From the NCBI GenBank assembly GCA_010093705.1, contig MU006090.1, positions 1,329,817-1,393,816 on the forward strand: DNA of 64,000 nucleotides, in the 5' to 3' direction. This document shows positions 13,921-21,231 of the stretch, piece after piece; position 1 is the stretch's first letter; every line of letters begins with the position of its first letter. The DNA comes from Patellaria atrata CBS 101060 (Eukaryota). Under the pieces are notes generated by a model that saw nothing but the letters and a program-made list of their open reading frames with translations, was not told the DNA's origin and ran no database searches. The translations under genes and the position numbers were made by a program.

Positions 13921-14376
13921 TTACTTCCCAAGCGCAAAGGCAGCCTGCGTCAACGTCCTGAACGCAATAATGACGCTCGAGAACCACAGCCCAGTCCTGA
14001 TATAACTGTACGAGTTCGTCGTCGTAGTGATATAACTAACCACATAAACGACCCTCAAGGCAAGATAAACCTGCACGAACGTATCCACGCCGTCCAAGTT
14101 CGCCAGATTGCCCGCGATGACGGCGGCAGCGAAGAGCGGGAAGTTCTCGAGCATGTTGCCGTGCGCGGCCTCGGCGCGCTCCCAGCGCGTGTACAGCGAG
14201 GGCCCCAGCCGCTGCGCCAGCCGCGGCCGGTAGTCCGTCCCCTTCGGGTTGCGGTTGTCGACGCTCGCTGGGTTGCCTTGGCTCGCGAGGTTGGTCGCGT
14301 AGAATTTGGGGAGGAGCGCGAGTCCCCAGTAGATGGGGAGGCCGAGGATCGAGAGGTTGGCGGAGGTCCACGACAT
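13921..14376 (-). CDS. MAPEG family membrane protein
   Basis: DNRNP, RAEAAHGNMLENFPLFAAAV, RVVY..SY and R..LW motifs; hydrophobic helices. Confidence 0.9.
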   Translation of the reverse strand: MSWTSANLSILGLPIYWGLALLPKFYATNLASQGNPASVDNRNPKGTDYRPRLAQRLGPSLYTRWERAEAAHGNMLENFPLFAAAVIAGNLANLDGVDTFVQVYLALRVVYVVSYITTTTNSYSYIRTGLWFSSVIIAFRTLTQAAFALGK

Positions 14377-14506
14377 AATGGCGGGCGTGTGTGTGGTTAG
14401 GGATGCAAGTATTTGCTGAGGTTCCCAGGTGACGGGCGCCAGGATGAATATGGGTCGAGCAGGTGTAGGTACTTCAGGAGCTCTGGTTGATGTTATGTAG
14501 GTATGT

Positions 14507-14508
<2 letters not shown>

Positions 14509-14542
<34 letters not shown>
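14509..14542. repeat. (AG)n microsatellite
   Basis: Uninterrupted AG dinucleotide run upstream of the MAPEG gene. Confidence 0.95.
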
Positions 14543-14544
<2 letters not shown>

Positions 14545-15137
14545 AAGTAAAGGGTTGCTTGTTAAGACGGAAAAAAGACACTTGCATCAATCAATGCTTA
14601 AGGTAAGTTCTTTATTCCTTCTGTCAGCATTTTAAAAGGCAGGATGCAGCTGTCAAGATATACATTTCCGTGCCTCAACCCGGAGATGGTGTAATGATAC
14701 CCATGTTGTGTTGCGAAAGTGAGCATTGCGGCGCGGTTTTTATTGTAATTGATTGTATTCGCCAGCTATACGCGAGGTCTACGAGGTTCTATCACAATGA
14801 TTTGGTGTAACATGATAGAAGATGACAGTTCATGCCAAGGGACCCTTGGGTGTGTTTCCGGAAGCTGGGGGAAAGCCGTGAACACACCAAGGAAAATCCC
14901 TGCCTCAATCGGACGGACCTGTAACGGAGACATTCCATAAACTCCCACCGCCTCTGATTCCATATAAATCTGATAGACACCTATTTGGAAGCAAGATCTC
15001 GTCTATCATCTCGGTCCAAAAGATAAGGACGCTGCACACGTGTTACTAGTCGCCTAACTTGGAACATCTATCATGCAATCCTCCTGAAAGTGCCACAGAA
15101 AGTATGAACTCAGTCTGCCAGCTCCATTCCTCGGGAC

Positions 15138-15187
15138 CTATGCGTAGTTAGCAGAGCTTCCAATATGTAGAGAATTGGGGGACTTAT
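15138..15187 (-). other. Terminal 50-nt intron of the telomerase RNA precursor (non-canonical AUAAGU donor)
   Basis: On the minus strand: ATAAGT (15187-15182), GCTAAC branch point (15152-15147), TAG (15140-15138), directly after a U-tract. Confidence 0.85.
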
Positions 15188-17400
15188 AAAAAAAATAAAA
15201 TGCCATCCCGTAGGATGGCATGGCCTCCTCGGCCCTTTCCTCCACACTTCCCCACCCTTTCCGCCAGATGAGCATCCTTCCGACCAGGTCGTCCCCTCCG
15301 CTGCCCGACATCGACCATGAAACAAGAACAACGTTGAGCCGGGTAGATCTAAAACAGAGGTCTTGCACTAGGTGAACGCATCGAATCAGCACCGGCTGCT
15401 TCGACACCGATAGAGACTCAAAAGAACCAAAGGGAACTCCACGTGAACAACAACCAGCAGACAACGTCCCGCAGACAAGCCTTGACTTTGAGCCTCACTC
15501 TAGAGAGGTCCCGCGTTCGAATTGCCCGTGATCCAGTTGCGGTCCACGCTTCATCCCTTTATCTCCCTGCTCTACCAATGGCGACCCCTTCGAAAACTCG
15601 CGCGTTGAACACCGAGAAGGTGTGCATTTCCAATTTGATAGACGCCAGACTCTGCTGATACCTGAGACCAAGGTGAAGTGATCGGGTTTGAGAAGAAACA
15701 GTGGGCATTGCCTCTTTCGTGATACACACCTTGGCCCCAATTGCAATCTCTTTCTCCACAGCTGTTTCTCCAAGTCTCAATCTTCTCGATTGCTTCTGTG
15801 AAAACACCGTGCCACTTTTCAACTCTCAACAACCAAACCCCGGGGTCGGGAAGGCCTCTCTCTGTTGTTATTGCATTCCTCTCGGAGACAGTCTTTGTTT
15901 CCTCTCCGGCGTGATTCCGGAGGGCGTTGATAAGCGGACAAAGTACATCTACAAAAAACCGCTTACATCTCCCGCAGGAGGAGTTTGACACAACTGTGGT
16001 GGGTCATGACAAACGATATCGGCGTTCATCGATCGACCGTACGCTAAACGTATGATGAGATGATTAAGCGTGGCTGATCCAGACATCACTATGAAGTGAC
16101 AGTGCCTATGGCTGATGCCGCGGCAAGGGCCTTCGCACAACTATCACATGTGCCCGGGTTGGAGACAGGAGCAGTCCGCAAGGACATCGCTGGAGAGACG
16201 TACGGGACATCTTCACCTTTGCTGGCCCCTGATTTCTATCAACTTTTCGACTGCAACCTTTACTTACCATAAACCAATTGTATGCTTGAGCAACGCTAAG
16301 GCTGAGATGAGTTTTCACCTGCGGCTGCGTCGGGAACGGTGTTTACCGGGATACACTCTTATCAAATTTCGAACGCAGGGCGTGGCGGACTGCCATTGCC
16401 TTCAGAAAGACGCCTGACTGAAGGTGATCACCCTTTCCCTAGTCTCTGTTGAAACTCAAAGGCCTCGCTACGTGTATGACACGATTCAGACGAGTGGACC
16501 TTTGAGAATGGGAACTCAAATCCCGAGGGTAGATCGTGGGATGATCTGTTGTAAGCTTAGCTCTCCAGGAGAGTTAGATTCGCGCTCAATTCTAGTTTGA
16601 TAAGAGTAATCCGTCGTAGCTCGCCCCTCAGCAGTCGTAGACACTACTAAAAGTGCTAATGAAAAACCCTCAGGCAGTCCGAAGCTCAACAATTGGAGTT
16701 TGGCGTCGCAGATATATAGTCCGATTGATAGAATCCAGCGGTAGCAAAGGCATGTGAAGATCCCAAGAACGATCCTCGTGGAGGTGTTCGACTTCTCTCA
16801 CCTGTTTCTCCCATAAGGTGTTGATGTGCAATTGATTGAAAACTGTCCAAGGTGACCAGAGTCTGACGTCTGTCATCCGGTTTCGACGCGCGCTCTCCCG
16901 GGAGAATCTTACCCAATTTTGGCGCATGAAGACCGGTTTCTAGCACCACGAGACCCACTTTCCCACCTTGATCGTCACCTAGAGCGCAGTTAAGCATTCT
17001 AGGGAGTTCAGGGTGTTTAGTCATGAGCCCCGGCAACTATATCCACGAGACTAAGCTTCACTAAGAAGCAAACCGATGAGGTGGAGTTAGGGTTAAGTTC
17101 CAGATTCCATCCACCTCAAAATACCCTTTTTTACAATGTTGCCATCGCAGCACTGCAAGCGGCAGCAGCCGATACTCTGGTGAGACCATGCTATGAGGCT
17201 CGAGTAAGGTGGTGAAACTTCACAGTGCAGGTATTATGAGGGGTCGTGAGACATCCTGACCGTGAGGCCCGAAGATGGAGATCGGGGACTGTGGGGAGAG
17301 TGAGGTGCATTTGAATACCCACCGTAGTGAGCGAGAGAAGAAGGGTTGGAGAGAGCTTCGAGCGACGCGTTGTTCCAACATCTGTCAACGTCGGACGAAC
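15188..17400 (-). ncRNA. TER: Telomerase RNA (TER/TR); 5' end approximate
   Basis: Template UAACCCUAAC at 17095-17086, candidate pseudoknot and P1, P6.1-like GAGUGAGGCUC at 15500-15490, U-tract and AUAAGU splice site at the 3' end. About 2 kb long, with no credible CDS. Confidence 0.88.
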
Positions 17401-17796: not shown

Positions 17797-20700
17797 ATGG
17801 TAACCTTACAAAAAGCCATTCAAAACGCTGAGGATTTCCTCCACCCGTTGAAAACAGCAAAGAGGTACTGGCCTCCTTGTGGTTATGTTAGTTAAGATAC
17901 TAAATATTACAGTGAAGAGCACAAGTCTCTCATCAACTGTCTTGCCACTTATGCAAATACTGCTGAGAATGGGGATGAGACCTCTGGACGAACACTAGTA
18001 TTGAGTCAAGCATTAGAGCTTCTTCAAGATATTCATAATGCCATTAAAGAGGAGAAAGCAAACCCATATCGTATCTTATTGCCAACAGGAGAACCATCAT
18101 CGGCAATCTTCCAGTTGCTAGATTTATTAGTTTTAGAAGGCATTATCCCGTTCTTATCTCTAGGAGTCGCAGTCCAACGTCGTCCGACGACAGCTCTGCC
18201 ATGGATATCCTTGTCTCCGCCGCAAGATCTAGACGTGGATGAAGGTATCCTTCGTCTAACGATAGATGGTTTATTAGCTATATCTAGGGAAACCGATTCA
18301 GGACTAGAGCCTGTATTGCGGGATAGAATAATTGCTGATCTCATAGCCGGCAGTGCGGAACTATCTTTCTTTCCTCGTTATGCAAGCAACAAGGGGGAGA
18401 ACAGTAGTCCTAACCTTTTTCAAGTACTCCTAGATATGTACGTTCTATGTAGTTCCCTAAGTAAAAACCTGAATATATATTTCCACCCGCTTCCCAGGAC
18501 TTGACTGAGAATCTGTCATAGAACACCCACGGCTACTCTAATGCTCCAGCTAACCCACCTATTACAACAACAATTACCAGACTGGCTTCGCCCTCACCTG
18601 TCAAAAACGTTATCTTTATTACCTCTTCGTCCTCGGGGCGTACGTACGGTTATCAGTTTCATCGCAGCATCCCACCCCTTACCTCCCGCAGCAGAAGACC
18701 AGTTTGAAGCCTTGCCCAACTCTCAGGGCCCTCCGCTGCCCCTCGAAGCCCTCCAGCAAGCTACAAAGCTACTGTCTTCAGTCCCGAGCTCGATGAACCT
18801 AGGGAGCTATTATTCTGCATTAGCACTCCAGTTATGGGAGCTTTTAGATGGAGGCGATGGTCCTGAAATGGCTAGAGTGGCTGCTCACATTATCGGGAGC
18901 GGCATTCTTGGAAGGAGATCTGTCGGTGCTCCCGGCAAGATCGGATGGGTCCTGTTTGCAGATCCGATCATCGGTCCTCTCAATCCTTCTACAGTGCCGA
19001 GACTTTCTTCTTCTGAAAATGCCAGTAAGGCTTCACTTGGAAACCCTATAGTAGACGAACCAGCCCTTGCACTTGCCTTGAAACGGTTTGTCACGCTCGT
19101 TACTTCGCATCCTAACCCAGGGCTCACAAAACGGCTTGTTGGCCGAACGCTATTGCCGTTATGGGGTCTGCTTTGCTACTCGAAGTCTCATCAGGTGAGC
19201 CCAGTCTGGGCAGAACGAGCTGAACTGCTTCTTTCATCCTTCATTAGACTCGGCGCGGGGCTCCCAGAGCTCGAAATGCTCACGTCAGACCTCCTATGGG
19301 ATGGCACTCCTCAGTGGATGTATAGCCGCGGAAGTGACGGCGGAATCGAGATACGGCTGAGGAGTGCCACAGAGAGTGACGCTCTTAATATTATCGAAAC
19401 TATGAACCAGATTGATAAGCGGATGGAAGCTTTCACGGGACTGCTCTCATTAAGCTCCGTGGATAAGGACATGGCCTGTCGACTGTTCACTGTGATCACT
19501 AAGCGGTGGCTCCTTCCGAAGCAAGTAACAAATACCGCGGCTCTTTCTTTAGAGGTTAATGCAGAGCCGGATCCTCTACAGACTTTCGCAAATGCTAAGC
19601 TTGTGCAAGTTATGCTGGAGCAGACTAAAGACAAGTTTGCCGAAAATCCAATCCATATCCTAGAATTAGTTAAGCAGTTACTGGAACAACATGTGGAAAA
19701 CGAGAAATACCAGTCTAAACGCAAACAAGACGTGAAAATGGCCCGATATGCAGGACTGAGCAGCATTGTACAGCACGACACCGCCGCAACGGAAGACCCG
19801 TCCGACCTCGAAGCTGCTGGAGACGAATCAATTGACCTCATAACCATGGCCACCAGCATCCTCACGACCATCACAACATCCAAAGACTTCAGCCTAACAC
19901 CGCAGACGCTATCAACCCTCTCCTCCACGCTTCCACTACTCACCCATCTCACCTCAAATCCCTCAAAATTCCCACGATCTGTCCTCAACACAGTCAACCA
20001 TCTCCTTACGACCATTACCGCACTAACCATCACCTCATCGACCTCACCGCACTCTTCCTCCCTGCCTAACCCCACCAATACAACCGACAACGACACCCAA
20101 GTCCTCCGCACCGCTCTCCAAAACCTCACCTCCCCCCTCCCCCCCATCCGCGTCGAATCCCTCCACACGCTCCACAACCTCATCAAATCCCACTCCCCCG
20201 TCCTCCCGATCCCAACCCTAACCACCCTCCTCATCTCCACCGGCCTCTCGGACCCCGAAAGCTACGTCCACCTGTACGCCATAAAAACCCTCGTGGCCCT
20301 CACAATCCGCGAGTCCCGCGTTGCCGGCCCGCTCGTCGTAGACGCGCTGCTGGACCCCAAGGAGGAAGGGGGCCTGGACGTTCGTCTCAGGCTCTGCGAG
20401 GCCGCAACGCAGATCGTGGAGGGCATTGCGGAAGGAAAGAGCGAGCGGACTCAGGGGCGCGTGTTGGTGGGGAAGATCGGCGCTGCTGTCGTCGCGGTGG
20501 CGTCGAGGAGGGGGAGACGGCCTCGGACGCTGGCTGCGCGGGAGAAAGCGGCGAGGGTGGAGGATGCGAGACGGATGGAACGGGAGGAGGTGCTTGGCGA
20601 GGCGGCTGCGGCGTTGGATGCATTAGATGAGTTGGATGAAGATGGGAATCCGATACCGGCTGCGAAGGTCTTGGAGAGGGAACAACTGAGCAGGATTGTG

Positions 20701-21231
20701 CAGGGCTGGGCGGATGTGGGGTTGGAAGAGGATGTGAGGGTCCGCGCGTCGGCGATTGCTGTACTGGCGAAGGTTGCGGAGGTGGCGCCGGAGGGGTTTA
20801 CGACACAGGGGTTGGATCAGGCGGCGGAGCTATGTATCGCTGTTCTCGTCCTCGAGACGAAACCCGAGAAGGCGATTCTGAGGCGCGCTGCTGTACTCGT
20901 GTTTTTGGGCGTCTTGAGGGCAATGGATAAAGCGCTAGAGGAGGGGAGGGAGGTACATGTTGGTCTCGAGGGGAAGAGATGGGAGGAGGTGGAGAAGGTG
21001 TTGAAGTGGGTACGAGATGAGGATCAGGACGATATTGTTAAAGGTCATGCTGGAGTTGTGCGGGAGGGATTGGAGGATTGGAGGATGAAGAGGTTGCTTG
21101 GTATTGAGAGAGATATCTCTGCGGATTTGACGCCTAGATTTGGGCTTGAGGGACGATTGAGAGGTTTGGGTGTTGATCCTGAGGTAAGTGTGAGGGGGAA
21201 GAGAGTTGTAGTTGAGGAGATAGAGGATTAA
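17797..21231 (+). CDS. RTP1: RNA polymerase II assembly/import factor Rtp1 (TANGO6-like ARM/HEAT protein)
   Basis: Exons 17797-17864, 17913-18437 and 18522-21231. Motifs LSLLPLRPRGVR, L.SPLPPIRVESL, LSDPESYVHLYAIK and EDVRVRASA. Confidence 0.85.

Follow-up and report, generated by a model that had tools for sequence, protein, structure and literature searches.

A probable spliceosomal cleavage module at the 3' end of a telomerase RNA gene in Patellaria atrata

The telomerase RNA gene and its 3' end

The window analyzed here is a stretch of 64,000 nucleotides (nt) from Patellaria atrata CBS 101060 (contig MU006090.1 of assembly GCA_010093705.1, positions 1,329,817 to 1,393,816 of the forward strand), and all positions are counted from its first letter. 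Its minus strand carries a gene body with a telomerase template, and at the 3' end of this gene body lies a compact series of signals: a hairpin, a U tract, a 5' splice site (donor) that begins with A instead of G, a branch site, and a 3' splice site (Table 1). To judge from these signals and from the comparisons described below, this series is very probably a module that processes the 3' end of a filamentous-ascomycete telomerase RNA (TER) by spliceosomal cleavage of the Aspergillus/Neurospora type.

Table 1. Features of the TER gene and of the module at its 3' end, in the direction of transcription
Feature	Position	Strand	Basis or remark
CGCGTCGCT, one mismatch to CRCGDCGCG box	17361..17369	-	Box from PMC3603654
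Telomerase RNA gene body, ~2.1 kb	15188..17320	-	3' end is the predicted cleavage site; 5' end approximate
Template UAACCCUAAC, would specify TTAGGG repeats	17086..17095	-	Unique in the window
Conserved junction helix matched by Rfam RF02462 Telomerase_Asco	15887..15962	-	Rfam search
Conserved 3'-arm element GGGACCUCUCUAGAGUGAGG..CAAGGCUUGUCUG	15472..15513	-	blastn and pattern search
Small hairpin GGCC-GAGGA-GGCC adjoining the terminal hairpin	15222..15234	-	Minimum free energy and centroid folds
Terminal hairpin AUGCCAUCC-UACG-GGAUGGCAU	15200..15221	-	Perfect 9-bp stem, cUACGg tetraloop; sequence read and folding
U tract UUUAUUUUUUUU, single-stranded in the fold, predicted 3' tail of the mature RNA	15188..15199	-	
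A-first 5' splice site AUAAGU	15182..15187	-	Predicted first-step cleavage between 15188 and 15187
C run directly 3' of the donor	15177..15181	-	Sequence read and relatives
Branch site GCUAACU, branch A 15148	15146..15152	-	Sequence read and relatives
3' splice site UAG, predicted unused	15138..15140	-	Sequence read

A first-pass annotation had located the hairpin, U tract, AUAAGU, GCUAAC, and UAG on the minus strand, and our reading of that strand reproduced every one of these elements at exactly the same positions, with an intron of 50 nt. The intron starts with A and contains the consensus GCUAACU as its branch site, and its 3' splice site is spaced as expected for an intron. This UAG, 10 nt from the branch A, is the first AG to follow the branch site. 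The pyrimidine- and U-rich tract AUUUUAUUUUUUUU stands directly 5' of AUAAGU, and the last 14 exon bases comprise 12 U and no G. Folding of the 131 nt from 15260 to 15130 gave a minimum free energy of −47.8 kcal/mol (z = −3.0; 2 of 200 shuffled sequences were as stable), and the 60 nt 5' of the donor reached z = −4.0, with none of 300 shuffles as stable. The terminal hairpin dominates this local fold, in which the 9-bp stem and its tetraloop were recovered. An open reading frame (ORF) of 108 amino acids, called mechanically at 15138 to 15464 on the minus strand, spans the intron together with the hairpin and U tract 5' of it; its stop codon is the putative 3' splice site UAG. This ORF has no credible Pfam match and most likely is not a gene.

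The upstream part of the transcript identifies the gene. The template UAACCCUAAC occurs once in the window, where 0.08 copies are expected, and 1.15 kb downstream of it on the same strand an Rfam search matched RF02462 (Telomerase_Asco), whose gathering score is 30, with 30.3 bits (E = 2.5e-05 over the window; model positions 1285 to 1381 of 1858). Telomerase_Asco was the only Rfam family matched anywhere in the window, and we read the matched junction as the P6/P6.1 three-way-junction region. The module follows 1.9 kb downstream of the template and 0.7 kb downstream of the Rfam match; from the junction to its donor the distance is 706 nt, within the range of 446 to 917 nt found in related TERs. 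The approximately 2.1 kb from the template region to the module contain only short mechanical ORFs, and a Pfam search with five mechanical ORFs of the gene body returned no family except one match at E = 0.066. The gene body has internal T5 and T6 runs, which argue against transcription by RNA polymerase III, and the neighboring gene, which encodes an Rtp1-type protein, marks the host as an ascomycete. Taken together, the template, the Rfam match, the lack of Pfam families in the ORFs, the poor fit to RNA polymerase III, and the flanking genes lead to the identification of this locus as a filamentous-ascomycete telomerase RNA gene. Similarity to two related metagenome loci, L026 and L038, was detected by blastn from 17372 to 15223; L026 is the nearest relative, with E values of 6.6e-22 for the core and 2e-34 for the junction.

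The 5' end of the gene is tentatively placed near 17320 on account of the promoter-like box CGCGTCGCT. In Aspergillus TERs, a CRCGDCGCG box is described 39 to 48 nt upstream of the 5' ends (PMC3603654), and boxes resembling CGCGTCGCT were seen at variable distances in the relatives. The locus adds an annotation for a TER gene that automatic tools detect only marginally, Rfam recovering one helix at threshold, and it fixes the expected 3' end of the gene, which is useful for work on telomere maintenance in this fungus.

Taken singly, the elements of the module are unremarkable in 64 kb. The window contains 20 copies of ATAAGT, 8 runs of T8 or longer (both strands), and 4 perfect 9-bp hairpins (shuffle mean, 1.1). 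The composite is rare: the pattern ATAAGT-N20-50-GCTAAC-N4-25-TAG has 1 match in 64 kb versus 0.06 expected, at least one match arose in 5 of 100 shuffles, and the sole match in the window is directly adjoined by the T run and the hairpin. A strict pattern for G-first introns (GTAAGT..GCTAAC..YAG) had no matches in the window, and a loose G-first expression had 24, compared to 34.5 in shuffles; the window permits no statement about the intron consensus of the genome itself.

The module in related telomerase RNAs

To compare the 3' end with those of other TERs, we used 41 metagenome loci that had been retrieved by a pattern derived from the Rfam-matched junction alone, so that their 3' ends were not selected for. 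A template-like word was present 740 to 1,319 nt upstream of the junction in 29 of the 41 loci, most of which share the context GGAACUUAACCCUAA with the window; the other 12 are either cut short upstream or have a template outside the simple pattern (L003, L004, and L006). Downstream of the junction, at the distances given above, 19 loci (13 distinct sequences) combine an A-first donor with a GCUAA[C/U] branch site 3' of it. The donors of these 13 sequences are AUAAGU in nine cases, AUGAGU in three, and AUACGU in one. A further 19 loci end before the expected place and are uninformative. Contig L016 breaks off in the 3' strand of the hairpin, and L029 stops within 2 nt of the place where the hairpin motif is lost in its sister contig, L036; the two records may be DNA or RNA, and no inference was drawn from them.

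Counting all distinct related TERs that reach the place, the order hairpin, A-first donor, GCUAA[C/U] was found in 13 of 14. As a control, the full pattern of A-first donor, branch site, and YAG was searched for in the 800 nt around the expected end of 13 nonredundant sequences. It was present in 12 of the 13, compared to 1 of 13 on the reverse strand and a mean of 0.98 (maximum, 5) in 500 shuffles. The branch site is followed by a YAG within 40 nt in the same proportion (12 of 13), and the introns of the relatives measure 47 to 58 nt. In an alignment of 14 sequences with a mean identity of 45%, the only invariant columns were the AU..GU of the donor, the GCUAA of the branch site, and one isolated C; the donor begins with A in all 14. 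These metagenome TERs, chosen blind to their ends, lend independent support to the published view of A-first cleavage introns as the rule in filamentous ascomycetes, with one apparent exception, which is discussed below.

Probable cleavage at the first splicing step

The arrangement found here matches a published one. Kuprys et al. 2013 (PMC3603654), in the parts consulted, describe 13 TERs of the Aspergillus group with a pyrimidine tract, AUAAGU, and GCUAACU at the 3' end, and report that the 3' ends of Aspergillus oryzae TER are nonpolyadenylated and ragged within 6 nt. According to the parts consulted of Kannan et al. 2015 (PMC4299874), placing the Aspergillus niger TER intron in Schizosaccharomyces pombe TER1 yielded a cleaved RNA ending inside the pyrimidine tract, and changing A to G at intron position 1 shifted the outcome from cleavage to splicing, with the cleaved form reduced more than 10-fold and short telomeres. 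This agrees with the statement of the first-pass annotation that AUAAGU allows only the first step of splicing in Neurospora-type TERs. According to a review, every telomerase RNA known from filamentous fungi undergoes such spliceosomal cleavage (PMC4993307). The mechanism, its kind, and its spread in filamentous fungi have been published already, and the window adds another case.

The window shares with Aspergillus TERs the succession of pyrimidine/U tract, AUAAGU, GCUAACU, and 3' splice site, an RNA of about 2 kb, and a TTAGGG-type template. The Aspergillus motif CGGC3-5U7-12 (PMC3603654) is matched by L003 and L004, which align with the window; the window itself differs in having no C3-5 block, its tail UUUAUUUUUUUU being joined directly to the cUACGg hairpin. 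By analogy, RNA polymerase II would transcribe through the module into a downstream exon, and the spliceosome would assemble on the 50-nt intron and perform the first step, in which branch A15148 attacks the bond between U15188 and A15187. The A at the start of the intron would block the second step here, as it does in the A. niger TER intron, and the 5' exon would be released as telomerase RNA with the U tract at its end, from which a few bases are probably removed. The hairpin would then stop 3' exonucleases and present the oligo-U tail to an end-binding complex, for which Lsm2-8, a La/LARP7-type protein, and Sm are candidates. In Neurospora crassa, an A-first donor alone is reportedly sufficient to restrict splicing to the first step, and this is said to be conserved across Pezizomycotina. 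Position 15188, proposed in the first-pass annotation as the mature 3' end, is correct as the end of the predicted cleavage product; the mature population is likely to be ragged around it, as the published ends are. The broader proposal of a Neurospora-type cleavage module is supported by the template, the Rfam match, the relatives, and the published Aspergillus mechanism.

One could instead suppose that this is an ordinary intron that is removed completely, and that the functional TER includes a further exon on the 3' side of 15138. None of the three splice signals is missing and 50 nt is an intron-like length, but A at position 1 blocks the second step in yeast, human, and A. niger TER introns, with the spliced product barely detected in the A. 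niger case (PMC4299874, in the part consulted). Similarity to the relatives also stops at the module: the last blastn match ends at 15223, and the alignment has none after the branch site. We consider complete splicing extremely unlikely.

Several points weigh against the interpretation of the stretch as a cleavage module of a TER. The Rfam score exceeds the cutoff by just 0.3 bits, and the match spans 97 of 1,858 model positions. The functional test (PMC4299874, as far as consulted) concerned an A. niger intron in S. pombe, not in its native filamentous fungus. The relatives are metagenome contigs and phylogenetically not independent. In L038, the branch site has no YAG within 40 nt. Finally, L036 (an RNA also represented by the shorter L008 and L029) has a terminal hairpin and no A-first donor in the next 225 nt, from which it follows that the module is not universal; either the cleavage intron was lost in the lineage of L036, or the record stems from processed RNA.

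L036 also bears on a further alternative, namely, that the splice signals are bystanders and that the end is made by transcription termination and exonuclease trimming to the hairpin, so that the hairpin and the U tract define it. L036, with its hairpin and no A-first donor, leaves room for such termination in some lineage, and in the window a simple scan flags the hairpin and T run as terminator-like. Against this stand the conservation of donor and branch site as the sole invariant blocks in the 45%-identical alignment, their occurrence in 13 of the 14 distinct relatives that reach the place, and the need for the A of the A. niger donor both for the cleaved form and for telomere length (PMC4299874, in the part consulted). 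Trimming to the hairpin with idle splice signals is in our estimation very unlikely, and cleavage at the A-first donor is the reading we retain.

A bacterial intrinsic terminator or an RNA polymerase III T-run terminator was considered as well. The likeness lies in a GC-containing hairpin followed by a T run, which a consensus scan flagged in the window, and it was rejected as a look-alike in view of the ascomycete host, the internal T5 and T6 runs, and the conserved splice signals.

The U tail, its hairpins, and the flanking genes

The predicted cleavage product ends in U8, which raises the question of what holds this end. S. pombe TER1 is similar in that its mature form is the 5' exon set free by the first splicing step, with a U-rich end that Lsm2-8 protects. 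It differs in that its donor shares one base with an AU6GG Sm site, whereas the window has no G after the U run, and in that the two steps are uncoupled by other intron features and not by an A-first donor. The S. pombe type of cleavage is marked by an Sm site at the donor and by uncoupling through branch-site strength and a long distance from the branch site to the 3' splice site. The signals in the window do not follow this type, as they lack an Sm consensus, include an A-first donor, and place the branch A only 10 nt from the UAG.

The U tract may nevertheless serve as an Sm site, with the same cleavage and an Sm ring rather than Lsm2-8 on the mature end. Fungal TERs are generally described as Sm-bound, and the parts consulted of PMC3603654 and PMC4299874 label the equivalent Aspergillus tract as an anticipated Sm site. 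The tract departs from the Sm consensus AU5-6GR (from yeast, quoted in PMC3603654), having no G in its last 14 exon bases, and cleavage would leave a bare oligo-U end. In S. pombe, most of the mature TER1 is held by Lsm2-8 after Sm has left (PMC5805746), and the U run is not conserved in those relatives in which a hairpin abuts the donor (described below). An Sm ring at the mature end is thus possible and, on this evidence, somewhat unlikely. The first-pass annotation had likened the G-less tract to an Lsm2-8 substrate; the resemblance is a fair one, given the absence of G, and stays a resemblance. In the literature on filamentous fungi, we found no test of Sm or Lsm binding to TER. These introns are not accompanied by a conserved canonical Sm site, and the identity of the end-protecting protein thereby becomes a directly testable question.

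The structure 5' of the donor is conserved more as a shape than as a sequence. A hairpin was predicted there in all 14 sequences (z = −1.7 to −5.5), and in 8 of the 14 none of 300 shuffles was as stable. No stem sequence is common to the different groups, and the loops vary as well; as read from these sequences, the hairpin is conserved and the UNCG loop is not, cUACGg being peculiar to the window. Two layouts could be distinguished. In the first (seven sequences), a pyrimidine- or U-rich tract lies between the hairpin and the donor, and in six of the seven, including the window, it forms a free tail of 10 to 14 nt; the predicted fold of L003 pairs most of its tract. In the second (L007, L011, L013, L014, L023, L027, and L034), a long conserved hairpin is followed by a small hairpin adjoining the donor, and there is no free U tail. 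The long hairpin has an almost invariant top, CUCCAGAAAUGGCG, compensatory changes in 4 of 15 pairs, and 98% of cells paired; conservation does not extend to the U run of the small loop.

A second recurrent feature is C richness after the donor: at least five of the eight bases that follow it are C in 13 of 14 sequences, while the whole segments are 20 to 30% C. In the predicted fold of the precursor, this intronic C run (15167 to 15182) pairs with an upstream G run (15238 to 15255), so that the U tract and AUAAG lie unpaired within a junction loop. The same outer helix is predicted in most of the seven relatives with the hairpin-abutted layout and appears, weakly supported, in their consensus fold (78.6% of cells paired, one compensatory pair); it is inconsistent in the relatives with a U tail. 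We regard a clamp formed by the G and C runs as a lead suggested by these folds.

Combining these observations, one may speculate that this lineage skips the Sm stage altogether: the G-less oligo-U tail on the ultra-stable cUACGg hairpin would form a U6-like end read directly by Lsm2-8 and/or a LARP7/Pof8-type protein, and a helix between the G and C runs, present only in the precursor, would hold the donor open. We think this combination unlikely. If true, it would mean that RNA structure, and not just the A at position 1, helps to commit the intron to cleavage without ligation.

Another conserved element of the RNA lies in the 3' arm. The stretch GGGACCUCUCUAGAGUGAGG..CAAGGCUUGUCUG is 85 to 96% identical in blastn matches to many relatives, and a pattern built on it was found in 27 of the 41 loci in addition to the window (the match in L027 is false), in two versions whose stem halves covary. 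This element, which is not named in the published TER descriptions consulted, could be a protein-binding site.

The TER gene is flanked by two protein-coding genes. On the plus strand, at 17797 to 21231 and divergent from TER, lies a gene for an Rtp1/TANGO6-type RNA polymerase II assembly factor, apparently split by introns; the nearest protein clusters are mostly from Ascomycota. Downstream of TER, at 13921 to 14376 on the minus strand, is a gene for a MAPEG-family membrane protein. These neighbors differ from those reported for A. oryzae TER. Two sequencing runs listed as "RNA?" were set aside as transcript evidence, as their contigs run continuously across genes and spacers and are therefore genomic DNA. 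A (CT)n microsatellite of about 56 bp (14497 to 14552) separates the TER module from the MAPEG gene, and the contig sets of both runs break there.

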